NCBI GenBank assembly: GCA_044892525.1
Contig: CM097885.1
Coordinates: 184,512,001 to 184,576,000 of the forward strand
From: Schmidtea polychroa
Taxonomy: Eukaryota
Reading direction: 5' to 3'
DNA: 64,000 bases
This document shows, piece by piece, positions 26,875 to 53,680 of this stretch. Position numbers and translations under genes: made by a program. Under the pieces are notes generated by a model. It was not told the origin of the DNA, ran no database searches, and saw nothing but the letters and a program-made list of their open reading frames with translations. Every line of letters starts with the position of its first letter. Positions within the stretch are counted from its first letter, which is position 1.

Positions 26875-27379
26875 GTTAAATAAAACTAGAAGTCGAATTC
26901 AAATTATATTCAAAAATTATAACAATATCGGTTTGACTAAACAAATCATTAAATTGACGATTAAGCATTTCTAAATAACAATAATAATTATGTACGCCAT
27001 AATATAATACGAATATAATACTTTAATATATGTATATGTTAATTTCTTAATAGTAATAATTCAGATGTAATTTATTATTATAATATTATATTGTGCTAAT
27101 AATTAAATCTTCCTCACAATACTAAATCAGTTAATAAAGCGATTCAAAATATATACGGTCAAACTTTAATTTTCTAACTATTGTGACAAAAAAAATGATG
27201 GCGGAAATCGAATTTGGCAGTAAATCGAGGTGAAAATTGAATTTCTATATCATTAAACCCTAATAGACTTAGCAATCTTCTAAATGCATCTTAAACGATT
27301 GTTAATGTATACAGCAGACTCATAATCATTTTCTTGGCAATAATTTAAGAATACGGTAAAACACCATGGTTCTCTATAT

Positions 27380-28309: not shown

Positions 28310-31300
28310 GTGGATAAAAAAAAGTTCTCTTCAGGTGCTCAGATGCGTGCATTTAAAAGAAAAAGGAATTTGAAAGAAGCAGACAAAGCAAAATATCAAA
28401 GATTATTGTCTTTTTCTGAACTCCATAGTGTAGAAGAAAGTATTTCTACAACATGTGTGCTTCCTACTCAAGTGACTGAACCTGCTGTAGAAAACAGAAG
28501 TCTTGTTGAAATAATAAATGAACTTTTCTAAATGACAAAGCAAGATTTGACACAGGAAAAAGCAAAGTGAAAAATTATTTGAGCATTTTGGTTGAAAGGG
28601 ATGCCTGTCAACCTTTAAAAAATGATATGTCTACAAGAGACTATCCCACTACCAATCCTAGGAAATAAAAGCAATTTCTATAAAATTAAAATCCCCTTGA
28701 AGAACAAGTACATAGATACTGGATAGCTTCATCATACAGAAGTAATTATTGTTACTGTCATCATTGTTGGTTATTTGGTGAAGACGCCAGAACTTCGCCA
28801 TGGATAGAGTATGAATGATTGGAAGCACATTTTCTAAAGCATTAAAAACACTTTCAATCAAAATTTCATCACAGAGCAGTAAGTGCGGATAAACAATTCG
28901 ACAAGACTATGTTGATTGAAGTTTCATTGAAAAAACAAATGGGTATAGAAGTTCAAAAATAGAAATATGTTCTTAATCGTCAGTTCGGACTCCTACGAAA
29001 ACTTACTGGTCATACAGAATCCTTGGGTGCTCTTAATCCACACGCGCTCTTATAAATATTAAGACACAATATACTAAAAACATAAAATTTAAAGAAAAAA
29101 AGCAATTATTTATTGAAATCGTTTATTTATCAATCAATAACTGAGACTGAAAAAAAATTCTTTAAAAATACAATAGCGTTTACTGATTCATCTTTCAATC
29201 TTGTTCTCAATTTAGACACCACAATTCCAAATGTTGAAAATACGCGTTCGCTTTCCAATGATATTGGTTTCACTGTTAGAAGAGCATTATATAATAAATC
29301 CATATTTTTGATCTGAATTTAGTGGCTTCATAAAGTTGAAATTCTTTGTTAAAAGAATTGAAATTATCCCCATTGATGGCTATTACAGAATTTATGTTTT
29401 TTTTATTTCTAAATTCACCTCATCGGAAACTGATAGTGATGTAGTTTCGGATTCACGTTTATCATGAATACATAACGTTTCTGCATGTTCTTCACCAGTA
29501 TTTCTTTGTGCAGTTTCTTCTTTTGGAAATAATCGTTTCATTAGTTATTTGGCATATGCTAATGTGACTTTTCTTGGCGAATACTGAAACCATGCATTTT
29601 CTTTTGATGAAGAAAAATTGTGCAGAAACATCAAAAGTAACACCATCGGTTTATTCATCTCTGGCTTATACGTTAAAGTAAAACCTCTTTGAAATTTAAT
29701 CTTAGCGCAGAGTTTCTTTCTGTAAATTTATTCATTAAAAAATTACAATCGTTTCGCAAGATAATAATGTACATCTTTTCTGCTTAGTGCTTCAACAGTA
29801 GCTTTTAATGGAGACAGAACAGCCAACATATCCTTAAAAATAACCAAATTATTTTCTTGAACTTTTTAATAGCATTCAATTCAGCCAGACTGATTTTTAT
29901 ACAAATATACAGCATGATAAATCTCTCAATCATAGCTTCAAATAGAATTCTATCTGGTTTTAATATCTCTTATCAAACCAATTTCCTTTTTAAATTCTTG
30001 TTTTACATATCGCTGCAAAATACTATTTTTATTGGGTGATCGTCTGAAGAAATTTAGAACATTTTGAACTTCTTTTATTGCCTTGTTTGGCTGAAGAATA
30101 ATTCAAGTTCATAATTTTCAAAAACCAATTCACCATTTTCAAAATCGTTGGAATTGTCATCCGATTCTAATTCTGAAAGTTCTGAACTTATTTCGTCATC
30201 ACATATTTCTTCACGAAAATCCAGTTTCTCGCAATTATTGTAGAAAATATTTATTACAGCTAGATGAATGGCCTGAATCATGCATTACTCGTGGAGAGCA
30301 GGACTTTCACACCAAACTTACACATAACACTAGCACCTTTAGTTGTCGATGCAACAATGCTTTTCGAAAATGACTCCAAATTCTTTCAAATGTTGGTTGA
30401 CGATATTTTCAGTTTCTATGGCATCACAACTTCCAATTATTCGAACTAACCCCAAATTGAAAAAAAACTGATTCGTTACAATGAATATTAATATTGAAAT
30501 ATCACTTGTTGGCAACACTTGTCCACTCATCGACAGTAAGACTGAATCTTTCACTACTGTTTAAGTTTTTACTTATATTTTCAATTATTGTGGCCTTTTC
30601 CTCTCTAAAATAAGAAATTACTAAATCCATTACTTTTGATGGATTTTTTGGAAGATTATAGTCTTTATCCGAAATATATTGCCTTATTAATGAACTTTTT
30701 GTTATTGCGTTTACTCTGAAACTATCTTCAGAAACTAATCGTGTCACAATTTCATTTAGCTGTTGTTGTCTCTTCATAAAATTAAGAATATTTGGATTAT
30801 TGTTGGTGTACATTTTTTTTGAACTGGAGCTGCAGTCTTTTGAGCGTGAACTGGTAAGATCCTGCATATGTTTTAGTTTTAAATGGTTCAACGTTGGTGT
30901 TGTGGAAGATCGCTTACATCTTACCTTGTGTGCATTTTTTACAGGAAGCTTTATATCCATTTCTTTTAAAAAAATACCCAAACCTCAGCAGAATTTCGTT
31001 TAGACATTTTTTATAAGGACTAAAAATGTGAAATTCAAAATCTTTCAAAATAATTGTATAAATGAATCTTACTGTTTGGTATATTTAGGTTAATAACTTA
31101 TTTCATTAAAACAATTAATCAATAATATTTAAATCAATCTATGTATTCGTATATTTCCACATTTTATGTTAAACTGTCACTTTTTTAGTCATGCGTATTG
31201 CGTATGAAATATATTTTAATTTTGTATTTATATTTAAATGGTTGGCCTACTTAGATCAGTTTTAGTAATAAAACACAAAATAATTTGAATTTATTACATA

Positions 31301-35900: not shown

Positions 35901-37731
35901 CAACATTTCATAGAAATGGATTTTCTGAACATATTGAGCCTGTTTATTATTATCACTATTACAATAATTATGTTATCACTAGTTGGGGTACCCGGCGTTG
36001 CACGATTTAAAAAATAGTAAACAGATTCAAAATAAAGAAATTTATTTCAATTCATTCATTAAAAAAAAATAATTTAAAAAATACATAAAAATTTAATTAA
36101 AAAAAGTACATGTAATTTCTATATCACTCATGATAAAGCTTGTCGATAGACTATATTTTTCGTTTTCCTTCTGGTGAAAAAATGAAAAGATTTCTTGGTG
36201 ACCCAACTCTAGAACATGCCACATATAGCTGTCCATGGGCAAATATGCTTCCTCAAGTACAATACCTGCCACTTTTAAAGACTGTCCCTATGCCTTGTTG
36301 ATAGACATGGCAAATGCAAGCCTGATTGGAAATTGGAGGCGCTTGAAATTAAAAAGCATATCTGTTGGTATGAGTGGAATTCTTGGGATGAAGACATCTT
36401 CTACTTTGGCGCAGCCTGTCAAAATTGCGGCTTCTATTACATTAGGTAAGAGATTCTAGATGCTAAATTGTGTTCCATTGCATAGTTTAGGGGATCCAAA
36501 TTTCTCAGAAGTATGATAGGAGCTTCAATTTTAAGTTCCAAGTTGTGTGAAGGCATGCCAGGAGGCTCCAATAAATTCAAAAACTCTGTTGGATAATAAA
36601 TAGCTTGGGACGGATCTGTAACCGTATCAATTGATTTGTAGGTTTGTTGGGGTTCAGTAGGAACCGGAAATGAACGTTCGAAATTAGATAATAAATAAAA
36701 TAATAATTAATTACCAAAATTAGGATTAAAATAAAAATAGTATTTTAAAATTACCAAAAATAGAAAGTAAATACTAAAATTAAAACTAAAATATAATTGG
36801 TAATAAATAATTACTAAAAATAGAATTATAGAAATTATTTAAAATATATAATAAAAATAGTAATTAAACAATTACTATTAATAGAATTACGTAAAATAAA
36901 TTAGTATAAATAATAGATAAAAATTAGAAGGAAGGACGAAGTGAGAAGGCAGAAAACCGCAGTGTCTGAAATTAGAGAAGAAGAAGTCAATTCTATTTTT
37001 AGCAACCAACTAATTCTCGTCAAGTTTTGGAATTTTGGGAAATTTGGTTTTATCGTAAACTAATTTTCGGCGAAGTGACAGTTGGCATAATTTTCATCGA
37101 TTAAAGGAAAATTTAGTTTTGGAATTTTGGGAATTTAGTCTTATCGACAATCTAATTGAAGAATTTGTATTGGAAATATTGGATCGAAAGCTAATTTTGT
37201 GGATTATCTATTATAACGTTATTTGGTAAAGATATTAAATCAGTTAGTATTTATCATTATTTAAATAGTTATAAGTAATTTTCAAATCGGTTTATATTTT
37301 AACAAATTAAAGTAATTTCAAATAAGGGATATCATAACGTCAGCACGTATTTTTGTGTTGTGTCGTTATCAATAATTATTTGAAAAGAGTTAACCAATTT
37401 CTGGGTTAACTCTATAGCGAAAATTTTGGTGATTGTCCCGTTCTCTTTTTCCTTTCACCTATATCGGGCTGTTGGCGCATTTAGGGCCAGCCTTGATACT
37501 TAGTAACACTCTTCAGGGCGGTTTGAATAACCGTTTTCTATACTTAGAGAAAGCAGCGTGGTGTACCTATATATATATATATTTAAACGTGTGAATAATC
37601 TTTTAATTGAAAAATAAATATTTAAATCATATTTCTTGTTTATTTATACCTACGCGCATAAATTATTTACGTGGAGTCAGATAGAACATTTTTGTGTTAG
37701 TTCGAAGACATACCCATCGAACCTAACATTT

Positions 37732-37749
37732 TGGTGAGCCCGACGTGAT
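37732..37749 (+). promoter_or_regulatory. Primer-binding site complementary to tRNA-Trp
   Basis: TGGTGAGCCCGACGTGAT; complement ATCACGTCGGGCTCACCA matches the metazoan tRNA-Trp 3' end (ATCACGTCGGGGTCACCA) at 17/18. Confidence 0.85.
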
Positions 37750-37827
37750 TAAATTATCAGCGGGTATATATTGAATTAAAACAAAATAGCGTTAGGAACT
37801 AGAGCCAGAGTAAAACTGGAAAATCAA

Positions 37828-40800
37828 ATGGCAGAGGAAGCTAATGTAAATGCATTTGCCAGATATCCCGCTCTGCCCGTAAAGGCATTCAGCGGTGATC
37901 CGGGAGAATTCCCAGAGTTTATGTCTGAATATTATCAGATGGCCAAAGCATACGCCTATCCAGATAATATCATGATACAAAGGCTGCCTATATATTTGAA
38001 GGGGCTGGCAAGAGAAAAATATAATGACATTATGGCATTACCAGTTGCTCAAGTACCGAAAACATGGGCCGAAATGAGAGAACAAATGACTGCTCGAATA
38101 TTGCCCGGAGATGCGGGAAGAATATTTAGACAACAATTTTACCATCGAAAACAGAATGCCAATGAACATGTGGGGGAATTTGCACACCAGCTATCTTTAA
38201 TTGCTGAAAGAGCATTTGGACCAAAAACCACATGGGCAAAGCCAACAGAATTGTTAGTTAAGGATCAGCTATGGGCAGGACTTACTCCTACAATGAGGAA
38301 CGCGCTAATATTACATACTAGCGACGATTTTGACGAATTGACACGGAAAGCTGTCGTAATTGAAAGCAGCTTGGAAAAGTCAACCATGTTCCTGGTAAAC
38401 AGTGAAAGAACACCGGTAGAGTGTTTCAATTGCCATAGAAAAGGGCATATAGCGAAAGATTGTACCAGTAGGAAAATTATGGACAATCGTAAAAGTATAC
38501 AATGTACCAAATGTGGACGGAATAACCACAGTGCGGAGAATTGTAGAGTGCAGAATTTGCAATGCGAAAAATGTAAGCGAAAGGGACATGTTGCTGCGGT
38601 CTGCAAGACTAGAAGTCCTCAGAACAGCAATAATTTTAGTACAATCAGAAGAGATGATGTAAATTCATCAGGAAAGATAAAATGTCACGGATGTGGGAAA
38701 TTCGGACATATGATGAGGTCATGTCCTCAGAACCAGAGTGGAAACACGAGTCAGTTCAATAAAAATACCGATAAGGGTAATGTGAACAAGTCTAAGACAA
38801 CTTTCATGGTTAACCAGGATCAAGGGTTAACGTATCTGCAACAACTGGAAATGGAAATCCAGGAAGAAAAGAATAGGTTGGCTAGATTGACCGACCAAGA
38901 AGGCACCATCTTCATGGTAGAAGTTGGAAGAGATGAGTATCTCAGAAAAAAGGACTCCGTTAGAGAGGACCTTCAGGAAACGGAATCAGAGGAGAGTTCC
39001 GATGATGAACCTAGTATGGCCACCATACTAAGCGAGTTCGATAGAACCTTGACAGGGAAAGCAAAGGTAAAAGAAGGGTCAGATACCCTAACAAAATGTT
39101 TAAAACTGGTGGATTCCAGATATGAGTACCAGCAGAAGCTGGCCAGACAATTGGGAAAATTGGGAGAAACAGAAATTAAAATTCACGAAATCGATACAGT
39201 AGTAAAACTGATATCGCAGGTCGAAGATGATCCAAAGTATCATAACGACACGTACAAAATCCTAAGGAAATTAGGAAAACTTTTGGAACATGAGTGGGAT
39301 CTCCAAGATGCCCAGCTCAATATAAAACTCCCACAGGATAAAGAGTATAACCTCGATATAAATGTAAGAAGTCGAGCCGATAAATTAACGGAAACATTGA
39401 CAAGTATTAAGCATCAAGGATATGACTTATACTTATGTGGAATAAAATTAGAAGCAAACCAAACACTTCTACAGAACGGGATACTCCCAGGTAGAGTGAC
39501 GAAGCTCACAGCAAAGAGAGCACCAAAGCCAGTGGCAGTAATGGATCAAGATAGCGTATTCTTGATTACTCAGATGGAAATCGAGAGATTGGAGGAAACT
39601 CAACAATTAACCCAGCGACTAGGGTTGGAATTGCAGAAATCCCCACGAGATGGTGAAACTATAAAGGAAATACTGGACTGGATGTTAGTATTACGAATAC
39701 CAGTAGATTTATTGGAAGCAATAATTCCACTTATACTACCAGTGGTAAAGGAAACAAGCCCATTTCAGACGCAAATTGAAGCGCTGATGAGGAAAAATGG
39801 GAAAGCTATCCGAAGTCAGCCTGATAGACAAGGCAACATTAATCTAGACGTGCGAATGATGGGAAAAGAACCATTAACAATGATTTATAATTGCTATATC
39901 AAGGTTAAAATATTGAGGAGAGATGTAATTGCCACCGATCAAACTACAGGTATATTCCTGATAATGGTCCATGGCAGGCAAGTGGATGACGATGAATATT
40001 TAGTGGATGTGGGTTGTCTACCGCTGGCAACAACCACGGTAATGATCATCCCAGTAACTCCACCAGAGTCCCAGTGGTCATTAATGAGACTGCCAGATAT
40101 AGCAAACCAAATTGCGGAAGAAATTGAGGAAATAAGACTAGAGGAAATTAATCCCTGTCAAATGGTGGACATTGACGAGCAAGATTACTTCTCAGAATAC
40201 ATCAGATTAAACCCAGGAGAAACAAACGTAGGAGCTACTACGTCACAAGCAGTAACAAATCTGGAGAATGAAAAACCTCCGGAGAAAGTGAAAAAAGATG
40301 CACGAGGACGTCCTAGAAAGGATCAGATGAAACCTCCACCCAAGGAGCAGTTAAATCCGGAAACGATTCGGAAAATTCAGTTAAAAACATTAGCAGGGAT
40401 AGCTCAAGAAATGGACGACCAGGCGGGAGATGAGACAACAGCAGAAAGGTCGTTATTGTGGCAACGTATACAACAAATGATCGGGATTATCAGGCCCGAA
40501 TGGAGAATTCCAAAAATCAAGGGGATCGAAGTAAAGAAAATAACAAAAGAGGTCAAGAAGACAATGGACAGAGTATCCAAAGATGTAACAACAAGAGATA
40601 CCCAGGATGTCATAGAAGCATTCGTGCAGCAAGGGTTAACAAGAGGGAAAGTGGTAACATCTTTATCATTGTTAATTCAAAATGCCTTGGCCCGGATAGG
40701 GGATGATAAAAGGCTTATAGAACGAGAAATCGATCAAATAGTCGAAATGGTAGATTATTACCTGGAGGTATGGATGACCGTAAACAAATTTTGGGAAAAA

Positions 40801-42483
40801 GAAACGATTCCAAAACCACGATTTGAAGTCGTAGAAGAAGCCATAAATAATGGTAGTCCAGGCACAGGAAACATGACAAGCATGATCTTGATGTTCCTAG
40901 TGATGATGGGCATATTAAAACAAACAAATTCATTAACAGTATTTGACTGTGGAAACCCTAAACTATCTCGGGTATATTCGCTAGTAGATGCAATTGAGTG
41001 CAAAGAGGCGTATCCCGAGAAGGTTCATCAAGGGGAAAAGGTAGAATATTATGTCTACCAAGAGAGTGAATTTTATAGAACCACGATAAAGGAATGTAGA
41101 GTTCAGAGAGCTACGTTCGAATATTATTGCGGTAGTAATAGCTATTCTGCTTTTCTATCCGCAACATTAATACCAAGGCCGGTAAACATAATGCCCGAAG
41201 ATTGCTTAGATGCATTTCGAAAAGGAAGTGTGAGGATAGACAACGAGGTATCAATTTCAGCAGAAATTGGGAAAACCTTGGGAATAACAATCACCCGAGG
41301 AGGAACAATCGCTTCAGACGGAACATGCGAAGGTAGAAAGAAAATTAGCGGTAGCAATTTAGTTTCCTATGTGGTAGACATAGAAGATTACTCAGTGGAG
41401 CTACGAGAATACGAGGGAACATTCGATGGGGCCACAGGAAAATTGATGGCACATCCGCAATGCAATGCCAAGTTCGGTAGTTGTAAAACGGGAACCACTA
41501 CGTTAATTTACGAACAAATGAGAGATCATTGTGAGTTGGCTTTCCTCAAGAAAATTCCTTTTAGAAAATTAAATGGAACTAAATATCGGGACTCCCAGAA
41601 TCCAGAAAAGGTTTGGGATAAAGCAAAAACGTTGAAGAAAATCAACAAACAAGAGAAGGAAGATATCGGAGAGGAAAACACACCTCTAGTATTGATATCG
41701 GAAGACAAGACGGAAGCAATTCGATTTGTCCGAAAAGATAAAAGGACTAAATGTGGGAAAAGAGTATACGAGACGAACTACAAAGGAATTTTCCTGTCCA
41801 GAGAATATATCCGGAATTCCAAGGTCCTACATGTAAAGGATATCAAAATCACGAATTATATAAATAATAAGGTAGATTATTTATATCATGATCTGCAAGG
41901 ACAAATGCAAGATATGTATCAAGAAGTGATACTAAACGATTGTAAGCTAAATCGTGAAATAGTCCGAAATAGATTAGCAATATCTATCGTTAACCCAGAG
42001 TTGGTTACTCCAATGTTATTGGAAGATGGAATGTTTGGCAGAATCATGGGAGAAGCTATATATAGCTATGAGTGTAAACCAGTTGAAGTACAATTAGCCA
42101 GATTTAATCAATGCACTCTAGAACTGCCAGTATCTTACCAAGGAAAATTGAGATTTGTTATGCCAGTAACCAGAAAGTTACTTGAGGAAAACGCTAAACC
42201 TCAACCAGCTATATGCAACCCGGCAATATCACCATTATACAAAATAAATGACATGTGGATATCTCTGCCGGAAAGAAAACCATCTACACAACGGGTAGAG
42301 ACCTTGGAAGTGACTAAATTAAAAGATAATCTGGAATTCAAGTCACTAGATGAATTAGCAAAAGGAGGGATCTATACTCCCGACGATATCGAGGAAGCAA
42401 GGAGGACATTGCTATTCCCACACATCAGAGACAGAGGTATCACGGAAATTATAAGAACAATTTATCATGATAATTTGATATGA
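37828..42483 (+). CDS. gag: ORF1 of element 2: Gag (4 CCHC knuckles) + accessory region + signal segment + chuvirus-like glycoprotein ectodomain
   Basis: Retrotransposon-Gag-like N-term (FSGDPGEFPEF..YLKGLAREKY), CFNCHRKGHIAKDC etc.; Cys-rich ectodomain beginning LTVFDC; ends at a single TGA in frame with ORF2. Confidence 0.9.
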   Translation: MAEEANVNAFARYPALPVKAFSGDPGEFPEFMSEYYQMAKAYAYPDNIMIQRLPIYLKGLAREKYNDIMALPVAQVPKTWAEMREQMTARILPGDAGRIFRQQFYHRKQNANEHVGEFAHQLSLIAERAFGPKTTWAKPTELLVKDQLWAGLTPTMRNALILHTSDDFDELTRKAVVIESSLEKSTMFLVNSERTPVECFNCHRKGHIAKDCTSRKIMDNRKSIQCTKCGRNNHSAENCRVQNLQCEKCKRKGHVAAVCKTRSPQNSNNFSTIRRDDVNSSGKIKCHGCGKFGHMMRSCPQNQSGNTSQFNKNTDKGNVNKSKTTFMVNQDQGLTYLQQLEMEIQEEKNRLARLTDQEGTIFMVEVGRDEYLRKKDSVREDLQETESEESSDDEPSMATILSEFDRTLTGKAKVKEGSDTLTKCLKLVDSRYEYQQKLARQLGKLGETEIKIHEIDTVVKLISQVEDDPKYHNDTYKILRKLGKLLEHEWDLQDAQLNIKLPQDKEYNLDINVRSRADKLTETLTSIKHQGYDLYLCGIKLEANQTLLQNGILPGRVTKLTAKRAPKPVAVMDQDSVFLITQMEIERLEETQQLTQRLGLELQKSPRDGETIKEILDWMLVLRIPVDLLEAIIPLILPVVKETSPFQTQIEALMRKNGKAIRSQPDRQGNINLDVRMMGKEPLTMIYNCYIKVKILRRDVIATDQTTGIFLIMVHGRQVDDDEYLVDVGCLPLATTTVMIIPVTPPESQWSLMRLPDIANQIAEEIEEIRLEEINPCQMVDIDEQDYFSEYIRLNPGETNVGATTSQAVTNLENEKPPEKVKKDARGRPRKDQMKPPPKEQLNPETIRKIQLKTLAGIAQEMDDQAGDETTAERSLLWQRIQQMIGIIRPEWRIPKIKGIEVKKITKEVKKTMDRVSKDVTTRDTQDVIEAFVQQGLTRGKVVTSLSLLIQNALARIGDDKRLIEREIDQIVEMVDYYLEVWMTVNKFWEKETIPKPRFEVVEEAINNGSPGTGNMTSMILMFLVMMGILKQTNSLTVFDCGNPKLSRVYSLVDAIECKEAYPEKVHQGEKVEYYVYQESEFYRTTIKECRVQRATFEYYCGSNSYSAFLSATLIPRPVNIMPEDCLDAFRKGSVRIDNEVSISAEIGKTLGITITRGGTIASDGTCEGRKKISGSNLVSYVVDIEDYSVELREYEGTFDGATGKLMAHPQCNAKFGSCKTGTTTLIYEQMRDHCELAFLKKIPFRKLNGTKYRDSQNPEKVWDKAKTLKKINKQEKEDIGEENTPLVLISEDKTEAIRFVRKDKRTKCGKRVYETNYKGIFLSREYIRNSKVLHVKDIKITNYINNKVDYLYHDLQGQMQDMYQEVILNDCKLNREIVRNRLAISIVNPELVTPMLLEDGMFGRIMGEAIYSYECKPVEVQLARFNQCTLELPVSYQGKLRFVMPVTRKLLEENAKPQPAICNPAISPLYKINDMWISLPERKPSTQRVETLEVTKLKDNLEFKSLDELAKGGIYTPDDIEEARRTLLFPHIRDRGITEIIRTIYHDNLI

Positions 42484-42735
42484 CCAGATTACAATTTATT
42501 ATTTGGACCGGAACACTATAAAGAAGCAGCAAAGAACGTAATGATGAAAATATGGGGACGATTTACCAATTTTGGTATTTTCGTCGCGGGATGTTCAGGA
42601 ATTTACGCAATATTTGTAATTTTAAAGCTGATAATTACACAACTGATGTCAACATATAGCATATTCAAAATTGGAGGATGGTCATGGAAACTGCTATTAG
42701 GACTATGTCCTATGTGTGCAGAGTTTGCATTATTC
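40873..42735 (+). CDS. env: Env-like class III fusion glycoprotein (Jingchuvirales/chuvirus G-like), spanning the ORF1/ORF2 stop
   Basis: Signal-like MILMFLVMMGILKQTNS, VFDC, ECRV..YYCG, DCL, DGTCEG, CKLNREIVRNRL, GMFGRIMGEAIYSYECKPV, CTLELPVSY, FVMPVTRKL, GGIYTPDDIE, KIWGRFTNFG + TM, GWSW..LG; this motif order matches chuvirus G as I recall it (not database-verified). Confidence 0.8.
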
Positions 42736-45700
42736 AAACATCACAGAAAAGAAATTAAAGAAATTAGACAGAAACATTTGGTCAAACATGAAGTAATTGG
42801 AACAGAAATGGAGGAGTATTCGAGTTATCGGGACGATAACAATTCAAAGGGAGGAGGTAATGGAGGCTCTCGTGAGACATCTTCAAGATCAAATCAATCA
42901 CGAAAACAGAACTACAACAAAAAACCGAATCAGCAACAAAGAAAATCGAGATTCAAGGAATATCTTCCTCCATATGACCAATCAAAGGAAATCTATGTGA
43001 GAAAACAGTCCTCAGAAGGAGAATATGACAGTTCCGACCAAAAATTCGACATAAGGTCACCCAGATTCAAGAGAAGTCCAAGATACGTACAATTGCCAAC
43101 TTTGAGGAGTTTACCATCCGCACCAAACGAAGGGCGGGAACACTCGAGGGAAACAACACTCAGAACAGGACGACACCAATGGAAAATCGGTGAAGATACC
43201 ATATTTAATAATTTGACATGCTCAACATTGCCAGAATTACTTAAAGTGCACTATCCAAAGGAAGCGTTAGAGTCAATTAAAGCTAAATTCAAAGAGTATA
43301 ATCCTCAACTGAGTGATCCTGAATTACTGGAAGCAGAACAAACGAGGGCAAATACAATCGGTATATCGCACGATACTATCTTGATGGTCAACAACCCAGT
43401 GAACTTGGATAAAAAGCCAATGATAAAAATAAGAGTGAACCGACATACAGTTAATGCGGTGATAGACTCAGGAGCAGATGGTACCATAATTGAAGCTAAA
43501 TTGTTAAACCATCATGAACTGCAATCGCTAAAACCGGCAGGAGTAAAATTAACAGGAGCAAACGGATCCTCATTAAACGTAATAGGGTCATTATCATGCC
43601 AGATTAAGCTTTGTGACCAGGAGCTCCATCACGACATCATAGTGATGAGAAGTCTCCCAGCCGAATGTCTATTAGGTATGGACATCCTAAAAAGACTACG
43701 AGGAGTAGTATTCGATTGTGCATCTGGATTGTTAATCCGAGCACGAGGTAAAAAGAGAAAAATTTACAACGATGATACGGCTTATATAGATCATACAACT
43801 ATCATACCACCCAGAGCGGAAACAGTTTGCTTTGTAGCTACAAGCAATAATTGGGAAGGTGAAGTTGTATTCGAACCAAACGAAAAATTCTCGGAGAAAT
43901 ACAATATACCAGTAACGCATAGCGTAGGTTTAATAGTCAATGGCAGAATACCAATCAGGGTAGCCAATCTGGACATTAAACCACTTTACTTATATCCAGA
44001 TACCAGAGTGGGCAGAATCTGGAAACAAAACGAACCACAAGCTACGGGAGAAGGGTCAATACTCACCGTAAAGGCAGAAGAAAGAGATCCAGACATTGAG
44101 TACTACGATGCACCTACAGCAAACAGCAAAGTGCTAACTAGAAAAGAAAATATTCAAGTAAATATGTTATTGAGGAAATATGACCAGGTATTCGCGAAAC
44201 ATGAATATGATCTGGGAAAGACAAACTTGTTAGAACATGAGATTGTTCTCACCAATACAAAACCTATAAAGTTGAGGCCATACCGTATTCCATTCAGTCT
44301 GGAGGAATCAGTAGATAAACAGGTGAAACTGATGTTAAAACATGGCATAATCAGGCATAGTAAATCACCATATCAATCACCAATGATAGTGGTGGCCAAG
44401 AAGGATGGATCAGTACGATTATGTAACGACTATCGCATGGTTAACGAAGCAACATGCAAAGATAGCCATCCATTGCCATTGTTAGATTATATCTATGGAC
44501 GCATGAGAAACGCTAGGTTCTTCTCAGTAATGGACGCCCAAAAGGGATTTTATCAAATTAAGCTAAAAGATGAGACTATACCAATAACAGCGTTTTCTAC
44601 GAGTATGGGTCATTACGAATATAACGTAATGCCATTTGGACTCACCGGAGCTCCAGCCACATTTCAAAGAGCAATGAATTTGATGCTCATGGATGTACAT
44701 CATGCGATGGTATACATTGACGACGTTATAGTATTCTCGCCAAATTTGGAAAAACACTTGGAACATTTGGAAGATGTGTTCAAGAGGTTGATTAACGCCA
44801 ACATGAAAGTGAAACCGACCAAATGTAAATGGGCCGAACCAGAAGTGGTATATGTTGGCCATATCATATCACGAGACGGGGTTAAACCCGACCCAGCTAA
44901 TGTCGAAAAGGTAAAGAATTTCCCGGAGCCTAAAACCGTTAAACATATCAAAGGGTTTTTAGGTCTAGTTGGATACTACAGAAAATTCATTAGAAACTTT
45001 TCGGTTATAGCTTTTCCACTCACGCAGTTAGAAGGCAAAAATGTCAAATTTGTGTGGGGAACAGAACAGCAAGAAGCATTTGATATGCTCAAGGAAAAAC
45101 TCATCAAGCCACCTATATTGCGATTTCCAGACTTTGAGAGACAATTTTTGGTTATGACAGATGCCAGCACTCGGGGCATAGGTGCTGTGCTAGGTCAGAG
45201 AGATGACCTAGGAGATGAGTATGCAATTGCATACGCTAGCAGAGGATTAAAACCGCATGAAAGAAACTACGCAGTGATAGAACTAGAGGCTTTAGCAATT
45301 GTGTATGCTATAACCCAGTTTAGGACTTATCTATGGGGTCGAAAGATCATAGTGTATACCGATCATAGACCATTACAGTGGTTGACGAAACACACAATGG
45401 ATACATCAAAACTGGTCAGATGGGCATTAATTCTACAGCCATATGACATAGAAATCCATTATAGAAAAGGAGATCACAATGGAAATGCAGATGCTTTATC
45501 GAGAATGGACCAGGAGGAGGAGGCAGAAGATGTGAAGGAAGGACGTCTCGAAGGGACTATCTTCACACTGACTCGAGAAGCCAACCGGCTAGCTGATTTA
45601 ATGGAGGCACAAAAAGCTGACGAAGAAATCAATGTCATTCGACAAGCCTTAGAAGCGAAATACGTGCCCACAGAATTCACGAAATACTGGGAAAAGAATA

Positions 45701-47865
45701 AGGACAAGTTTGTGCTGGAGGAAGGATTAGTCAAATATTCAGATGTAAGAGACAATGTTGTAATGGTCCCTAAGAAATACCGTGAAGCACTCATGTTGCA
45801 GTATCACGATGGAGCCTTAGGAGGCCACCTGTCATCCAGAAAAACATTGTCAAGGTTAAAACAAAAATATTTTTGGCCCGGCATGAAACAAGAGGTTAAA
45901 ACCTGGTGTCAGACATGTAAGATCTGTATCACCAGAAGAAATACCGGAAAGAAACCACACGTGCCAATGAAGCCGATGCCAGTACCATCTACACCTATGG
46001 AAATGACGGCAATGGACGTGTTGGGGCCATTTAAAGAATCCAATAGCGGAAACAAGTACATCTTAGTGTTCTGTGACTACTTGACTAAGTGGCCAGAAGC
46101 CTACCCGATGCCTAATCACAAAGCTGATACGATAGCTAGAATTTTCGTTGAACAAATTGTCTTTAGGTATGGAGTACCTACGAAGCTATTAACGGATCGG
46201 GGAGCTGATTTCATGAGTAATTTGCTCAAAGGAATAAATGATTATTTCGGAGTTTTAAAGTTGAACACTTCCCCATATCACCCACAGACGGATGGGCTAG
46301 TAGAGCGATTTAATGGAACATTAGCTAATATGTTAGCATCATATGTAAATTCAGGGCAAACGGATTGGGATATCCACATTCCATCCTGTTTATTTGCATA
46401 TAGAAATGCAGTACACGAAGGAACAGGTGAAACACCATTTTACCTAATGTATTTGAGACAAAGTAAAATGCCAGTAGATCTGTTGTTTTTTCCTAAAGCA
46501 ACACAGTACTTGGATCAGCAAGATTATCTAATGGAAATGCGGGAAAGAATGCAGGAAGCATGGGCTAGAGCAGGCCTCAGTATAAAATATAATCAGGAGG
46601 CATCCAAAGATTATCATGACCGAAAAGCCAAGGATCATGGCATATTGGTTGGAGACCAGGTGATGTTGGAAAGTCATTATAACAAGAAAGGCTTATCACC
46701 AAAACTCATGCGCAATTTCAAAGGGCCATATGAGGTATTGAGAACCACAGACACAAATCTCATATTACAACTTGTAGCCAACAGAAAAGCAGAACCAATA
46801 ATGGTGCATGCTAATCGGTGTAAAAAGTGCGAAATCTCAACAAAAGGAATCTCTGGAAATTCAAAAGTAAGAGCACCAGAGAAACAAGTGAAACCAAACA
46901 CTACCGAAGAACCACAAGAACACCGATACCCATTGAGATCAAGGGGTGTCCCAAAATCGGTAACCTTTTTGCTGATAATAAGCTGTATGATGACTTTGGC
47001 AATGGCAAAAAGGGATAGAAAGGCCTATTTTCAGCCGATGGCTATGCAAGTGGAACACTTACATTTTATAAGAACGTATCATGGAATTAGCATACTCACA
47101 ACGTGCGATAATGCTACAAAGTTCAATTTACATTTCTACAACAAGTACTTACGGGTCCGCCAGCTCGATTCAGAAGAAAAAGAGTGGGAATTATATGACT
47201 TAAAAGCCGAGACGGATTATAAACTGCATATCGCAGCATCAAGGTTATATCGGAATGGTTGGTATACCTATCACGTATCAAATTGGATCCTACGGACGGC
47301 GGATTTCACAAATCGCATATCGATATCCTACGGAAGGGATAAAGTAAAGTTTAGTCAGCGAATTAACAGGGAGGAGAAGGTGAAAATCAGCATTCTAGAC
47401 GGATCAACCACGAGAGGAACATTATGGTTAGACCAGAACTCTCCCTCCCAAGAAAGGTATCTAAATCAGTCAGTAGAATATTCGGTTCTAGTTATATACT
47501 ATAGTCCGAGGAAACGGGAGGACGATAGGTGGTTCGAGGTATTCGAGGAGATATTACCTTTGAAACAGCCAGTAATAACGGAAATACCCCCAAAAGTAGT
47601 TAGAGAAAACATGGTGATACATCCCACGATGTGGCAACATCTTAGACAGTTGCCACCGATCAAACAAATATCTTGTCCAACGACTCCAAACTTGACAAAC
47701 TGTTGTGATTGTAATGCCATCACAAACTTTAATACAGGATATATCCTTAAAGTACCCATAGGGGTATGGATTACGGTATCAGCCGTCCTATCGCTAGTAA
47801 CTACACTGATAGCTATGGGTATTTGGACCAAGCTATATTTTAGACAAGCCATAAGGGCTTACTGA
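42541..47865 (+). CDS. pol: ORF2 of element 2: Env TM/tail + PR-RT-RNaseH-IN + C-terminal type I membrane protein
   Basis: VIDSGA (PR), YIDDV (RT), VMTDAS (RH), HDGALGGH..CQTC, MDVLG/TDRG/VERFNG (IN), FKGPYEV; then hydrophobic VTFLLIISCMMTLAMA, ectodomain and TM GVWITVSAVLSLVTTLIAMGIW. Confidence 0.95.
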   Translation: MMKIWGRFTNFGIFVAGCSGIYAIFVILKLIITQLMSTYSIFKIGGWSWKLLLGLCPMCAEFALFKHHRKEIKEIRQKHLVKHEVIGTEMEEYSSYRDDNNSKGGGNGGSRETSSRSNQSRKQNYNKKPNQQQRKSRFKEYLPPYDQSKEIYVRKQSSEGEYDSSDQKFDIRSPRFKRSPRYVQLPTLRSLPSAPNEGREHSRETTLRTGRHQWKIGEDTIFNNLTCSTLPELLKVHYPKEALESIKAKFKEYNPQLSDPELLEAEQTRANTIGISHDTILMVNNPVNLDKKPMIKIRVNRHTVNAVIDSGADGTIIEAKLLNHHELQSLKPAGVKLTGANGSSLNVIGSLSCQIKLCDQELHHDIIVMRSLPAECLLGMDILKRLRGVVFDCASGLLIRARGKKRKIYNDDTAYIDHTTIIPPRAETVCFVATSNNWEGEVVFEPNEKFSEKYNIPVTHSVGLIVNGRIPIRVANLDIKPLYLYPDTRVGRIWKQNEPQATGEGSILTVKAEERDPDIEYYDAPTANSKVLTRKENIQVNMLLRKYDQVFAKHEYDLGKTNLLEHEIVLTNTKPIKLRPYRIPFSLEESVDKQVKLMLKHGIIRHSKSPYQSPMIVVAKKDGSVRLCNDYRMVNEATCKDSHPLPLLDYIYGRMRNARFFSVMDAQKGFYQIKLKDETIPITAFSTSMGHYEYNVMPFGLTGAPATFQRAMNLMLMDVHHAMVYIDDVIVFSPNLEKHLEHLEDVFKRLINANMKVKPTKCKWAEPEVVYVGHIISRDGVKPDPANVEKVKNFPEPKTVKHIKGFLGLVGYYRKFIRNFSVIAFPLTQLEGKNVKFVWGTEQQEAFDMLKEKLIKPPILRFPDFERQFLVMTDASTRGIGAVLGQRDDLGDEYAIAYASRGLKPHERNYAVIELEALAIVYAITQFRTYLWGRKIIVYTDHRPLQWLTKHTMDTSKLVRWALILQPYDIEIHYRKGDHNGNADALSRMDQEEEAEDVKEGRLEGTIFTLTREANRLADLMEAQKADEEINVIRQALEAKYVPTEFTKYWEKNKDKFVLEEGLVKYSDVRDNVVMVPKKYREALMLQYHDGALGGHLSSRKTLSRLKQKYFWPGMKQEVKTWCQTCKICITRRNTGKKPHVPMKPMPVPSTPMEMTAMDVLGPFKESNSGNKYILVFCDYLTKWPEAYPMPNHKADTIARIFVEQIVFRYGVPTKLLTDRGADFMSNLLKGINDYFGVLKLNTSPYHPQTDGLVERFNGTLANMLASYVNSGQTDWDIHIPSCLFAYRNAVHEGTGETPFYLMYLRQSKMPVDLLFFPKATQYLDQQDYLMEMRERMQEAWARAGLSIKYNQEASKDYHDRKAKDHGILVGDQVMLESHYNKKGLSPKLMRNFKGPYEVLRTTDTNLILQLVANRKAEPIMVHANRCKKCEISTKGISGNSKVRAPEKQVKPNTTEEPQEHRYPLRSRGVPKSVTFLLIISCMMTLAMAKRDRKAYFQPMAMQVEHLHFIRTYHGISILTTCDNATKFNLHFYNKYLRVRQLDSEEKEWELYDLKAETDYKLHIAASRLYRNGWYTYHVSNWILRTADFTNRISISYGRDKVKFSQRINREEKVKISILDGSTTRGTLWLDQNSPSQERYLNQSVEYSVLVIYYSPRKREDDRWFEVFEEILPLKQPVITEIPPKVVRENMVIHPTMWQHLRQLPPIKQISCPTTPNLTNCCDCNAITNFNTGYILKVPIGVWITVSAVLSLVTTLIAMGIWTKLYFRQAIRAY

Positions 47866-48002
47866 TGTCGCAATTATGACAATTACAGACTCCCCCGAGG
47901 GAAAAATCATATATAAATATTTATATATATATTAAAATCTATATTTACGTAGAGCTCCAGGTAGCATTAAAATTCAGCATATGTAGATCTTTTAGAAGAC
48001 TC

Positions 48003-50165
48003 ATGCATATCTTTTTAGCCTATTATGGCATATCAGTATATCTGATATTATGGTTAATGATTTTTATTTCAGGAATGCAGAGCCACCCAATATCCCAATA
48101 TCAAGGAAAACATAGCATTATACGTGCTACAACCTTACTAAAAGAAAAACTTATTTATAAAAACCTGGAGAAGCAGGTTATGGAGCAAAGTAGAAAAGGC
48201 CAAAGGCACTGGTTTTACGGTCATTGTTCAGGCATACCCAATAATTTTAAATTTGACGAGGCCCCAAAGCGTCAAATGATCATCTCAAGAATCCCGGGTA
48301 AGCATAACGGTAGTATTAGGCTTACCGATGTCATGCCTGAGTTTGGCAGACATAGTCTGACCAACCACCTGTGGATACACGCCATTAACAAACCATTTAC
48401 GGTTTATGTTCCTGGCGCCACAAACCCCATTTTGCTGCAAAAGCACACAACCCTCGAGATAGAAAACGGGGATGGAAGGGAAAAGAACATCTCACTGTTA
48501 TGTGAAGGTATAGATACCATCATAGCAATGGAAATTCTGGAACCTCACAGAGAAACACAAACGAGATGGGTTAATGACCCAAACTGGACATATAATGTCA
48601 ACGATAACGACATTAAAACATTCAAGTCTTTCGTTAGACAGCGCATGGACCCTAGACAAGAGGATAACCTCACCATCTTCGTAGCAGCTCACTACGCTAC
48701 ATTACGACAATTTTTGAAACCGGCAATCGTGGCCATCTCGATCTCACACTTCAATGGTGATCTAATACTCAACACGAGAGTCACCCCCAGAGCACAGGTC
48801 AAACATTACCAATCGCATGCGCATGGTATGACCGAGAAACAAATAACAGGACAGTTCGACGGAGAAGACTGTGCCGAAAGAATTAGAAAAATCTGCGATG
48901 GGAAGATCATCGTGGGATTACTAGTAAAGGACCTATTAGAAGTAATCAGATTCCCAATGCAGCGCGCACTCGGAATTCGTGAGTTAGGCGCAGCTAAATG
49001 CCTCGAAAGTAGGGAACTAAAGAAATGCAACGGGTATTACCGTTTGGCATATCTAGCAAAAGCAGTCACCGGTAAAGAGGCACATCACTTCTCGGACCTA
49101 CAAACGGAGAATGATGTCACAACCATTAAGGAGATTTACGACAATTTACGAGACATCTGGGTTGATGACATTTCACCAGACACCCGGAAAGAGGTGGTGT
49201 CTTCACAAATAAAGCAGATGGAACCCGGAACCTCAAGCAGGCAGAAACCTCTAGCTATGGAGAGCTATGTGAAAGAAGATATCCCCAGGTCAAAGTTGTT
49301 GAAAATAGTGGAAGAAGATTCCTTGTCGCCGCCAGCCATTTCAATTGCTGATGAAGACGACTATGCCACTTGTGAGAGTGCAGACGATAACTGCCTCCAA
49401 GTCACCCTTACCAATGACGGTAGAGTGGTGAATTCGGCTAAAATGGAAATAGACAAACCACAGCCAGCAGAAAAGTTAGTTGAACGGGTCACCAAGATCC
49501 TGAAAGCATTGGCCCCGTTGGGTGAACCCAAACAAGGAGCAGAAGGAGGAACGTTACCCCAAGCTGTAGCACCATTACTTAAGCTACAAGATTTGAAGTT
49601 TAAAAAGAAAACAACGGAGAAACTCCCCCAGAAAGAGGACAAGGAGAAAACTGTCCCTATCTCCGCAAAAAGGAAAAAGGAGATTCCTAAGAGTACGAAA
49701 AAGAAAATGCCTAGGATATCCATCCAGGATGAGGATGACGATCTCCTAGAAACTCACTATCAGCCACCAGATCCCGCGTTGACCAAGATATTGGCAACAA
49801 AGAGTGAACCCACGATTACAGGAGAGCCGATCATCGTGAAGGAAGGCGAGTTCGTCGGAAGGGGCAACTCAATCAAAATACGGGAAGATCTCGACAGAGA
49901 AGATCCTAGTTGGTGGCAGAGACCCGACAGCAGATGGAAACCGCGTATCAAGGAATACGACGGAGGCCCAATCCATGAAGTAGCCGTATCCAATTTCCCC
50001 GATTACGGAGTATTGGAGGCTAATGAGGGCTCATATATCATCTCCTCAATTGTGTACAAAGAGGTAAGTACACGGGAGACTTTGGTGGTCAGTTACAGAC
50101 CTGACATTGTAGAACAAAGGATCCGTAACGAAAGTGCCAAGGTCATGAAAAGGAGAAAATACTAG
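48003..50165 (+). CDS. ORF3 of element 2: accessory protein with a DEDDh (ISG20/REX4-like) exonuclease-fold domain lacking catalytic residues; probable true start ATG 48075
   Basis: 720-codon intact ORF inside the LTRs; VAISISHFNGDLILNTRVTPRAQVKHYQSHAHGM..KIIVG aligns by eye with REX4/ISG20 ARVSIVN..G..LYD.YV.P...V.DYRT..SGI..RILVG. Confidence 0.7.
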   Translation: MHIFLAYYGISVYLILWLMIFISGMQSHPISQYQGKHSIIRATTLLKEKLIYKNLEKQVMEQSRKGQRHWFYGHCSGIPNNFKFDEAPKRQMIISRIPGKHNGSIRLTDVMPEFGRHSLTNHLWIHAINKPFTVYVPGATNPILLQKHTTLEIENGDGREKNISLLCEGIDTIIAMEILEPHRETQTRWVNDPNWTYNVNDNDIKTFKSFVRQRMDPRQEDNLTIFVAAHYATLRQFLKPAIVAISISHFNGDLILNTRVTPRAQVKHYQSHAHGMTEKQITGQFDGEDCAERIRKICDGKIIVGLLVKDLLEVIRFPMQRALGIRELGAAKCLESRELKKCNGYYRLAYLAKAVTGKEAHHFSDLQTENDVTTIKEIYDNLRDIWVDDISPDTRKEVVSSQIKQMEPGTSSRQKPLAMESYVKEDIPRSKLLKIVEEDSLSPPAISIADEDDYATCESADDNCLQVTLTNDGRVVNSAKMEIDKPQPAEKLVERVTKILKALAPLGEPKQGAEGGTLPQAVAPLLKLQDLKFKKKTTEKLPQKEDKEKTVPISAKRKKEIPKSTKKKMPRISIQDEDDDLLETHYQPPDPALTKILATKSEPTITGEPIIVKEGEFVGRGNSIKIREDLDREDPSWWQRPDSRWKPRIKEYDGGPIHEVAVSNFPDYGVLEANEGSYIISSIVYKEVSTRETLVVSYRPDIVEQRIRNESAKVMKRRKY

Positions 50166-51366
50166 CAATTCGGCTATGTGTTCAATGGACCTAGCAATTT
50201 GCTATACGTCCTCAATCCCAACACCTTCGACAACTCAATCCAATCCAGATATTCAAATTTATGAACAACATTTGATTAATCTGATTCTTGATTTTGTTTA
50301 ACAATTTTTGATTTTGACTTTGATTGCTTTATATATATTTTAATCAGTGATTCATTTTATTTATTTTTGTTTTTTGTATCGGCTGCAATTGTCTTATCTT
50401 TACCGCTTTAATTTTCGGGACGAAAATCTTGTTAGGGGGAAGACATGTTGGGGTTCAGTAGGAACCGGAAATGAACGTTCGAAATTAGATAATAAATAAA
50501 ATAATAATTAATTACCAAAATTAGGATTAAAATAAAAATAGTATTTTAAAATTACCAAAAATAGAAAGTAAATACTAAAATTAAAACTAAAATATAATTG
50601 GTAATAAATAATTACTAAAAATAGAATTATAGAAATTATTTAAAATATATAATAAAAATAGTAATTAAACAATTACTATTAATAGAATTACGTAAAATAA
50701 ATTAGTATAAATAATAGATAAAAATTAGAAGGAAGGACGAAGTGAGAAGGCAGAAAACCGCAGTGTCTGAAATTAGAGAAGAAGAAGTCAATTCTATTTT
50801 TAGCAACCAACTAATTCTCGTCAAGTTTTGGAATTTTGGGAAATTTGGTTTTATCGTAAACTAATTTTCGGCGAAGTGACAGTTGGCATAATTTTCATCG
50901 ATTAAAGGAAAATTTAGTTTTGGAATTTTGGGAATTTAGTCTTATCGACAATCTAATTGAAGAATTTGTATTGGAAATATTGGATCGAAAGCTAATTTTG
51001 TGGATTATCTATTATAACGTTATTTGGTAAAGATATTAAATCAGTTAGTATTTATCATTATTTAAATAGTTATAAGTAATTTTCAAATCGGTTTATATTT
51101 TAACAAATTAAAGTAATTTCAAATAAGGGATATCATAACGTCAGCACGTATTTTTGTGTTGTGTCGTTATCAATAATTATTTGAAAAGAGTTAACCAATT
51201 TCTGGGTTAACTCTATAGCGAAAATTTTGGTGATTGTCCCGTTCTCTTTTTCCTTTCACCTATATCGGGCTGTTGGCGCATTTAGGGCCAGCCTTGATAC
51301 TTAGTAACACTCTTCAGGGCGGTTTGAATAACCGTTTTCTATACTTAGAGAAAGCAGCGTGGTGTA

Positions 51367-51400
<34 letters not shown>

Positions 51401-53680
51401 AACGTGTGAATAATCTTTTAATTGAAAAATAAATATTTAAATCATATTTCTTGTTTATTTATACCTACGCGCATAAATTATTTACGTGGAGTCAGATAGA
51501 ACATTTTTGTGTTAGTTCGAAGACATACCCATCGAACCTAACAGGTTTTTGAAATGCCTGTTAGAAAATTGTGAATTTGAGAATTGATGCTGTTGACACT
51601 TGAATTCTTTGGAGCAAGAATGGCTCTTCGCACAACCACTCAGGATTTTTAAACTGGTCTTGGATGTTTGGAAAAACTGCAAGTTTCAACTCTTCAAGTG
51701 ACTTTACTACAGTGCAAAAATCTGTTTTAAATATATCACAAAAAGCAAGTGGATTAGAAACAGAGCATGTTGTCAGCAAAAATGAAAACAAATGTCTCAA
51801 ACGGGTAGATGATTGAGATGTACATGTCTCCTCCATGGTCCAGACCCAATGGTGATCGTTTTCTAGTGGACCTTGCATTTGGCAGGCTTCCCTAAATGTA
51901 GCACACACATGACCATCAACAATTTTTAAGTCAGTGTAGGATGTTGGTCCTCTAACAACAAGAAGTAGCATCCTCAAAAAGAAGCATTCCGCATTGGATG
52001 GGTGAACAGTGTACACACGTCCCAATGCATTATATCATCTATTCTCAAACCATGGGTCGCGAGGATAGATAACCACACATAGATAAGCTAGTCAGCAATA
52101 TGCAAGCTCACTCATCTCATTAATATGCTAAATTTATTCGAGAATGCAACTGTGTTTTTTAAATTTATTCTTTTATTTCGGATAATTAAATGTAATAATT
52201 ATCTTTAAGAATTAAGGGTTTGTTAGCAAAATTTTAAAAGAATTAAAATACGTTTAATGGGAAAATATTTTAGTCGGAGTTGGTAAATATAAAGTTGATT
52301 GCAAAAGAAGGAAAAAATTTTGTATTGGGTCGCCAAGTTTCTGGTTTCTGGCTAGTGGGTCCCTATTTAAAACAGTTTGAGGACCCCTACATTAGATGAC
52401 TTTATCCCTGGATGATATTCAACATCTGCTCCTTGTTTGCGGCGTTGAAACAATTTTTGAGAAGCATTCCAAGTAAAGTACCTTGAAACTGCACAATAGA
52501 GAATGGTTTTTGCAAAGTCATCTTGTTGGCACAGTTGAAAAATAGCTGTCAAAGTTATTCTTGGTGGCTCCAGAATTTGCTGATGGATATTTTCTTGGTT
52601 GAAGTATGCTCTTTGCACATTTTTAAGATGAACACTTAAACAAACAATTGTTGGATATGATTCACGAATTTGGAAATTCAAAATTCTCCAGGCTGCTTCA
52701 TTATTGCTGATGTAACGACCTTTAGAAATTTTTTCACCTCATCTGGGTTCTCTTGGTTTCCTTCAAGACCAAAAACTGCCTGGTCACTTCCTTTATTGAC
52801 ATACTTGCAGATGTATTTGATAACCTTGACAGATTGGCATGATTCGACATTGATGTGAGCTTGAAACTTTTTTTGTCAAAATTGCAGTGTTTACGGCGTC
52901 TGTACACATGATAGCCATCTTCACCAGTTTTAGTTTCTTGTATCAAATTTCTTGGATATTATTTGAGCATTTTCCATCAACCATACAAGCAGAGTTTCTG
53001 TTCAAATATCCACAGAGTCCATGCAGCATATTAATATTAAATTAATATTAAATATTTAAAATCAAAATTAGAATGATTTTATATTACAAACAAAATTTTG
53101 TATTGAAAATGTATAAAAATGGAATAAATATATGGTTAGGGTACCCTAGGGGTGGTCACCTGGGGTTGAAACATAGCCTATGACCTGTCCGGAGTCAAAT
53201 GAGAGTCACATGTAAAATTTCAGCACTCTAGGTCCAACGGTGGGAAATTCTATAGAAAACAAACAAACAAACTTTCATCATTATTTATCAGATTATTAAT
53301 GTTTTTATTGTTTATTATTACTATTAATAAAATTTTAATTAATAAAAACATTTTTTACTTTTTAGGAGTTATTTTGAGTATAAGTCCACAACTTGGAAGA
53401 CAATGTGGTGACACTTACAATGTAAGAATTCCAAGATTTACAACTCATGTTTTAATTCAATAAGTGTTTAAAATAAAATAAAAATAATAAATTGATACGC
53501 GAAAGCAGTTGCACAAGAAATAAATCTTAAAGCAAAAAACAAAAATATCGTCGAAGACGCAAAATATTAGCTTATCCAAAGTGATATAAATTGATATAAA
53601 AAGCGATCGCTCAAACAAGCAGGAAAGAAAAAATAAGAAAATAAAAGCAGAAAATCAACAATTAAAACAAAAAATAAAGA

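Follow-up and report, generated by a model that had tools for sequence, protein, structure and literature searches.

The locus described here raises the question of whether a retroelement that carries a viral fusion glycoprotein between gag and pol represents a design of its own or an accident of a single copy. It lies in a 64-kb stretch of the Schmidtea polychroa genome (GenBank assembly GCA_044892525.1, contig CM097885.1, positions 184,512,001 to 184,576,000, forward strand), hereafter called the window, in which a Ty3/gypsy-type element of 14.9 kb occupies positions 36645-51543 on the + strand. An earlier model reading of the letters alone, the sequence-only reading, had proposed that a chuvirus-like fusogen was embedded there in one membrane-threaded polyprotein, in a layout not known from any described lineage. 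On balance, we favour the view that this is a recent, defective copy of a compact Burro-like GAG-ENV-POL Ty3/gypsy family, whose polyprotein would be threaded through the membrane of the endoplasmic reticulum (ER) and likely extended by a leaky TGA. The layout itself is known. What appears to be new is a second surface protein that is likely FN3-like, a second open reading frame (ORF2) with a predicted dead exonuclease, and a conserved TGA-CAATTA.

The fusion glycoprotein and the copies that share it

A single frame, 37828-47865, was recovered as the sequence-only reading had given it, with 3345 codons and one internal TGA (codon 1552, 42481-42483). Pfam matches follow one another along it in the order Retrotrans_gag, CCHC knuckles, PF24664 (Monjiviricetes_fusion), aspartyl protease, RVT_1, RNase H, H2C2 and rve, which confirms that the fusogen stands in frame between gag and pol. 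The ectodomain of this glycoprotein (G), of the chuvirus/herpes simplex virus (HSV) glycoprotein B (gB) type, spans 40936-42576, holds 14 cysteines and is broken by the TGA. PF24664 was matched with an E value of 4.1e-69 before the TGA and 3e-12 after it, and the Borna disease virus G family was also matched (E 5e-4). Compared with PDB, the G profile gave five matches, all of them herpes gB chains, but with E values of 1.1-1.7. These matches uphold the earlier description of a chuvirus-like fusogen and place it in the chuvirus/gB class. A homologue search of a large protein set gave a single match for G. By hydropathy, the G transmembrane anchor follows at 42577-42642, and a milder hydrophobic stretch (Kyte-Doolittle 1.22) comes after it.

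An assembly chimera, or a one-off insertion of a viral gene, would be one way to obtain such an odd gene order, and nothing else speaks for it. The G/pol junction was found at 97-100% identity in all 40 places scored, out of 243 candidates, so that at least 40 loci carry it; contigs from other sequencing runs bridge it, and other families share it. This explanation, which the sequence-only reading had itself raised, is refuted, and we leave it practically no weight.

The sister copies also tell how the element is maintained. Ten of 19 sister loci are stop-free across 4 kb spanning G and the protease-reverse transcriptase (PR-RT) region. Ratios of non-synonymous to synonymous changes (pN/pS), crude counts made on substitutions common to at least 3 copies, with the window as reference and copies that are related, were 0.02 for G, 0.05 for the G tail, 0.03 for PR-RT and 0.13 for the second ectodomain; ORF2, taken in two halves, gave 0.04 and 0.11. 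We conclude that every module is under purifying selection, and that this selection is strong on G.

The window copy itself is defective twice. The TGA at 42481-42483 is private, as a stop was found at that codon in 0 of 19 sister loci, and programmed readthrough inside G is thereby ruled out. The second defect is a private short frameshifting deletion at the end of the polyprotein, whose length occurs in 1 of 28 copies, the window's own. The TGA precedes the G anchor, and this copy therefore cannot make Pol. Uninterrupted ORFs are thus lost here, while many sister copies keep them over the stretches examined.

A genome search with PF24664, in which 68 of 2581 candidates were scored, brought out another abundant G-bearing family, with frames of 3334 codons. 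Its copy L108/L109 has the order Gag, ubiquitin-like, Bcl-2-like, signal, G, transmembrane segment, Pol, signal, ectodomain, transmembrane segment, and its G agrees by eye nearly letter for letter with that of the published Smed_errantivirus_2. The window G is 43-44% identical to those of the L108/L109-type families. Over reverse transcriptase and RNase H, Smed_1/2-like families are 55-56% identical to the element, and an env-less gypsy element that also lies in the window is 38% identical.

The boundaries are those expected of a Ty3/gypsy element. Comparison of the flanks revealed a 4-bp target-site duplication, GGTT (36641-36644, second copy 51544-51547). The 5′ long terminal repeat (LTR), 1084 bp with TG...CA ends, is at 36645-37728, and the 3′ LTR, 1098 bp, at 50446-51543; aligned with each other, they show no mismatch and 14 gap columns, the gap being a (TA)n tract. 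The primer-binding site (PBS, 37732-37750) comes directly after the 5′ LTR, and the polypurine tract is at 50430-50445, all on the + strand. The integrity of these features, claimed from the letters alone, thus stands, and the copy is young and recently inserted. In Pol, the order protease, reverse transcriptase, RNase H, integrase, the gypsy-type RNase H and the H2C2 integrase are likewise Ty3/gypsy hallmarks, and no Pao-specific Pfam family was matched in the polyprotein. We take the PBS to resemble the 3′ end of tRNA-Trp, which no tRNA gene confirmed: the PBS pattern matches 1084 places in the genome, none of the 10 of these loci that were scanned held a tRNA gene, and a pattern combining T-arm and PBS had 0 genomic matches. 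Each LTR also holds a 43-bp imperfect repeat at a 92-bp spacing (37023-37157 and 50824-50958).

Gag occupies 37828-38730, with a capsid-like region and four CCHC knuckles (PF03732, E 0.0045; PF00098, E 2.6e-7). The accessory region behind it was assigned by way of the sister family. Its copy L109 matches PF00240 in two stretches (E 4.2e-5), and the corresponding region of the window, 39290-40080, for which no relevant Pfam match was found, is taken as two degenerate ubiquitin-like segments. Similarly, L109 matches PF00452 (E 0.0021), the window does not, and a BH2-like stretch aligns between both, pointing to a degenerate Bcl-2-like domain at 40420-40830. The two polyproteins align at 30%, with 21-30% in the accessory region. 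Pol (43410-46800) comprises protease, linker, reverse transcriptase, RNase H and integrase; the linker looks dUTPase-like by eye only, and no dUTPase Pfam family was matched.

The second membrane protein, the TGA-CAATTA junction and ORF2

Behind the integrase, the same frame continues into a second membrane protein, made of an internal signal segment (H3, 46948-47007, found by hydropathy and also present in sister families), an ectodomain (47008-47757) and a transmembrane anchor (TM2, 47758-47826, by hydropathy). The ectodomain is predicted to contain two FN3-like beta-sandwiches and a Cys-containing stalk. The protein is retained at ~42% in one sister family and at ~22% in Smed_2-like families, where it has an additional domain. 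A structure model built from 9 sequences gave two all-beta domains (pLDDT 69). In a fold search, tandem FN3 pairs were matched: fibronectin with Z 8.1 (155 residues aligned, root-mean-square deviation (rmsd) 13.2), CD148 with Z 7.9 (164 aligned, rmsd 5.6), and the CD45 pair was also among the matches (Z 7-8). A search of 1.84 billion proteins with the ectodomain profile returned 2 matches. One, matched through a single short motif with E 3.2e-6, is an FN3-repeat protein. The other (P0003, E 3.9e-5) is a 410-residue protein with signal, ectodomain and transmembrane segment that begins at its own methionine.

Several results speak against an FN3 assignment. C2 domains score as well as FN3 (on the second domain, with Z 8.1, 101 residues aligned and rmsd 3.2), and so do other Ig-like sandwiches; Z values of 7-8 are in a range that the tool itself calls common. 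Pfam fn3 was not matched by the ectodomain, and its hhalign comparison with the FN3-repeat protein was not significant. Taking both sides together, we consider it likely that the second ectodomain is FN3-like. A homologue search of the large protein set was blank for this region. A match of the ectodomain profile to EOLA1/ASCH rose from E 0.0014 to 0.75 once stalk and transmembrane segment were trimmed, and was taken as chance.

Beyond TM2, a TGA followed by CAATTA (47877-47885) is a candidate readthrough stop. It is out of frame in the window copy. In the family, however, TGA-CAATTA is found upstream of ORF2 in 28 of 30 loci, and in 25 of these 28 the polyprotein terminates at it in frame. 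Among 15 loci of sister families it occurs in 6, and in 4 of the 6 it is in frame with the TM2 tail. CARYYA is the readthrough context of tobacco mosaic virus, and UGA-CARYYA is reported to allow ~15% readthrough in a mammalian reporter (PMC4132726). Within the element, 1 of 206 TGAs is followed by CARYYA (chance 0.0025 each), and the 15-mer around TGA-CAATTA has 132 genomic matches, where a control has 3. The stop is followed by a 65-codon spacer (47880-48074) with two hydrophobic stretches and constraint at the nucleotide level, which is 72% AT yet without stops (chance 0.004), the other two frames having 8 and 3. Of the 34 copies in which it could be measured, two sister rows not being measurable, 33 have a spacer whose length is divisible by 3, and both groups include lengths of 195 and 198. 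No stop interrupts the spacer in 25 of 28 family copies and in 4 of 6 sister-family copies. At the level of the family, a lone in-frame stop, a CARYYA context and then an open frame are therefore present. The spacer also holds a short hairpin motif at 48020-48045, which 33 of the 34 copies retain, sister families included.

A number of observations nevertheless count against readthrough. A T-rich AG stands 2 bases before ATG 48075 in 34 of the 34 copies, which fits splicing. Shared synonymous changes in the spacer number 0, when 13 were expected. No stable RNA fold follows the TGA (z -1.1), the alignment fold of the spacer having been viewed on three rows. If the stronger of the two spacer helices alone crosses the membrane, the charges around it would leave the body of ORF2 on the luminal side, a poor site for an RNA-binding fold. 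The family of L108/L109 stops at a TAA that no long ORF follows, and ORF2 is therefore dispensable for the lineage. Finally, the copies are related, so that the junction counts are not independent events. In the place of ORF2, elements of the Smed_2-like family carry a conserved ORF of 80 codons, with CxxC and then a coiled-coil-like part (L108 4183-4422 and L110 4127-4369, minus strand).

Two alternatives make use of these observations. In the first, ORF2 would be a soluble protein of 696 residues started at ATG 48075, made from a spliced or internally started RNA, the TGA being a plain stop. The AG before this conserved ATG has 10-11 pyrimidines in 14 bases, the absence of shared synonymous changes is what a cis-element would give, a soluble protein suits a nuclease fold, and T-rich DNA produces hydrophobic-looking codons by itself. 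The CARYYA context, the in-frame stop and the open, frame-keeping spacer are left unexplained, and both routes can coexist; we regard this first alternative as unlikely, though a serious one. In the second, a splice acceptor, CAG 47886-47888, would link the spacer and ORF2 in frame with an exon further upstream, in the manner of spliced errantivirus env. This likewise predicts an open spacer that keeps its frame, and its AG lies inside the conserved 15-mer. The pyrimidine tract is however weak (7 of 14 bases), and such an acceptor gives no reason for an in-frame polyprotein stop at this place in two diverged families, which makes it very improbable. Contigs from sequencing runs presumed to be of RNA gave no joint into 47889 or 48073, a result that favours none of these routes. 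We conclude that the conserved context probably reflects readthrough at TGA-CAATTA, alone or beside splicing.

ORF2 itself (47880-50165, 761 codons) comprises an N-terminal domain, an exonuclease fold, a low-complexity region and a conserved C-terminal domain. The sequence-only reading had the modules right up to TM2 and overlooked this ORF. It has 122 matches in the genome (119 scored candidates), many with frames of 761 or 762 codons. The exonuclease fold, at about 48600-49190, is of the ISG20/REXO4-like DEDDh type, without the acidic residues of motif I. Residues 245-444 matched 9 of 10 loci recovered by a PF00929 search, with E values of 4e-21 to 2e-10. Loci L116, L119 and L122 of this matching repeat family retain the catalytic DxE and H..ED, whereas the motif-I D-x-E is replaced in the window ORF2 and in its sister L052. 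Compared with ISG20L2, the profile reached E 0.008 with window-like rows only, and 4.6e-9 when rows with intact motifs were added. By homology, ORF2 thus carries a DEDDh fold, which is predicted to be catalytically dead.

A homologue search of the large protein set was blank for ORF2. An AlkB/2OG-Fe(II) oxygenase fold, suspected by eye for the N-terminal domain, was not confirmed: this part gave no tblastn match to 5 host AlkB loci, an hhalign probability of 0.1, and no relevant PDB profile match, and its single-sequence model was unusable (pLDDT 35). As for the repeat family with intact motifs, L116-L123 form a family with multiple copies in this genome, whose DEDDh exonuclease ORF is ~28% identical to ORF2, and L120 adjoins a pol 54% identical to the window's.

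A model of the polyprotein at the membrane

Hydropathy located all four hydrophobic segments announced by the sequence-only reading (40861-40917, 42577-42633, 46948-47004 and 47758-47814), plus two more in the accessory region. The first, H1 (40861-40935), is the predicted tail anchor of Gag and internal signal for G. On this basis, the membrane-threaded topology of the sequence-only reading is a reasonable inference. Gag and its ubiquitin-like and Bcl-2-like cargo would be cytosolic, anchored by H1, which would also direct G into the lumen. The G anchor would bring the chain back to the cytosol, where Pol would fold on the G tail, and H3 would send the two FN3-like domains into the lumen, TM2 anchoring them there. 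Cleavage by signal peptidase and by the protease of the element would release Gag, G, Pol and the FN3-like protein in equal amounts at a single membrane, from which enveloped particles may bud. G would serve fusion, with the FN3-like protein likely as its partner in adhesion or attachment. Some ribosomes, a minority, would continue past the TGA and add ORF2. Since its fold lacks catalytic acids, RNA binding would be more likely than RNA cleavage, and ORF2 might for instance shield the element's RNA from host decay or from the PIWI-interacting RNA (piRNA) machinery. From the window copy, the only products would be Gag and a G ectodomain without its anchor, and its movement would depend on help in trans.

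Three points tell against the threaded topology. It was judged from hydropathy only; in the window's family H1 has no basic residue among the 15 preceding residues, where sister families have them; and G carries one sequon and no furin motif. The element could also be non-infectious and move within cells only, with G and the FN3-like protein serving adhesion, cell fusion or particle assembly at the surface of the host cell or inside its internal compartments. No particle or transmission data were found in the literature on these elements, and copy number gives no direct evidence of current activity, as the available text of PMC13524379 has it. On the other side, G is constrained like RT and its 14 cysteines are kept, as for a working fusogen. 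We find this explanation possible but rather improbable. More speculative, and in our opinion doubtful, is a full lineage of enveloped flatworm retroviruses with two glycoproteins, in which the threaded polyprotein would supply Gag, a class III fusogen, Pol and a captured FN3-type attachment protein in a fixed ratio, a programmed leaky stop would add a dead nuclease that protects the RNA against host silencing, and the virus would spread between cells, including stem cells. In practice, the conserved UGA-CAAUUA would be a short recoding signal that can be tested directly in a laboratory animal.

The surroundings consist largely of other mobile sequences. The element is inserted in a decayed Helitron-like Rep/helicase sequence on the minus strand (36300-36644 and 51544-52738). 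Helicase-like motifs are present on both flanks, and two ORFs of the right flank had no Pfam match. In the env-less Ty3/gypsy element mentioned above, at 22163-26898 on the minus strand, gag has 395 codons and pol 1201, and the two frames overlap and are both open. A fragment at 30502-30984, minus strand, resembles a hAT-type transposase by eye and had no Pfam match. Elsewhere, locus L051 (2-9700, minus strand) is Burro-like by eye, with Gag, MATH-like and ubiquitin-like parts, and adjoins a decayed sister of the window element; small ORFs lie upstream, one with a RING-like motif at its end.

Comparison with Burro, the Schmidtea errantiviruses and other elements

The sequence-only reading had held the layout to be undescribed, and had accepted that a described family of the same architecture would speak against it. 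Such families exist, and resemble the element in architecture and in G. GAG-ENV-POL errantiviruses with HSV/gB-type Env are reported from Nematoda, Bryozoa and Platyhelminthes, six of them from Schmidtea (Chary and Hayashi, eLife, PMC13524379, citing Sacco 2022). Smed_errantivirus_4, like _1 to _6 generally, has in common with the window element the GAG-ENV-POL order, the gB-type Env, the 14.9 kb length and the presence of multiple copies (PMC13524379). Counted by eye, its G row shares 96 of 150 residues with the window G, and no G row available for _1 to _6 is identical to it. The Smed rows list no PBS, whereas one is evident in the window element (PMC13524379). From this comparison of sequences, the window family appears as a sister of Smed_errantivirus_4 that is not among the six listed. 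In the main text of that paper, the words fibronectin, readthrough, polyprotein, accessory and exonuclease do not occur.

Burro, a giant gypsy element of planarians, has Gag, ubiquitin-like and BCL2-like motifs, with env in frame between gag and pol, and was called the first such case (Arkhipova and Yushenova 2019, PMC6431247). Burro and GYPSM1 resemble the window element in having one polyprotein, CCHC knuckles, and an env similar to mononegavirus fusion proteins (PMC6431247, citing Grohme 2018 and Jurka 2007). Burro is however >30 kb long with 4873 residues, against 15 kb and 3345 residues here, and the available account of it names no post-integrase membrane protein, readthrough or exonuclease (PMC6431247). 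Its MATH, BIR and ankyrin domains had no Pfam match in the window element. Given the small size and the lack of these matches, the element is Burro-like and not Burro.

Parallels to the 3′ end are found further away. SIRE1, a Ty1/copia element of soybean, has an accessory ORF past a single stop after pol, made by suppression (PMC2829016); it belongs to another superfamily and kingdom, and its readthrough yields an env-like protein, whereas here a predicted pseudo-nuclease would follow a second membrane protein. Juno and Vesta of bdelloid rotifers are gypsy-like and have a 3′ accessory ORF3 with a DEDD exonuclease fold, but this is a DEDDy enzyme with intact catalytic residues and no transmembrane domains, and it replaces env (PMC5408684). 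The window ORF2 is instead ISG20/REXO4-like DEDDh, has lost the motif-I acids and coexists with Env; the word readthrough is absent from the available text of the Juno/Vesta paper (PMC5408684). Mosquito BEL/Pao elements with a chuvirus G (Dezordi et al., as cited in PMC13524379) share the glycoprotein family, in a superfamily other than Ty3/gypsy.

A published description of an FN3-like protein, a dead nuclease or a readthrough signal in these elements was not found in the texts available, whose figures, like the Repbase entries, may bear on this; nor was a report found in the literature of a separate attachment-type protein beside the fusogen in Ty3/gypsy elements. As far as the published layout is concerned, the window element adds one more family, and its 3′ end matters more. 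Maelstrom and EXD1, of the piRNA pathway, provide a comparison for a dead DEDD nuclease (PMC5408684). The predicted dead nuclease of ORF2 recalls these two proteins and suggests counter-defence against PIWI silencing. Herpes- and paramyxoviruses split attachment and fusion between separate proteins, a division that the element would mirror in having its own FN3-like surface protein next to a gB-type fusogen.

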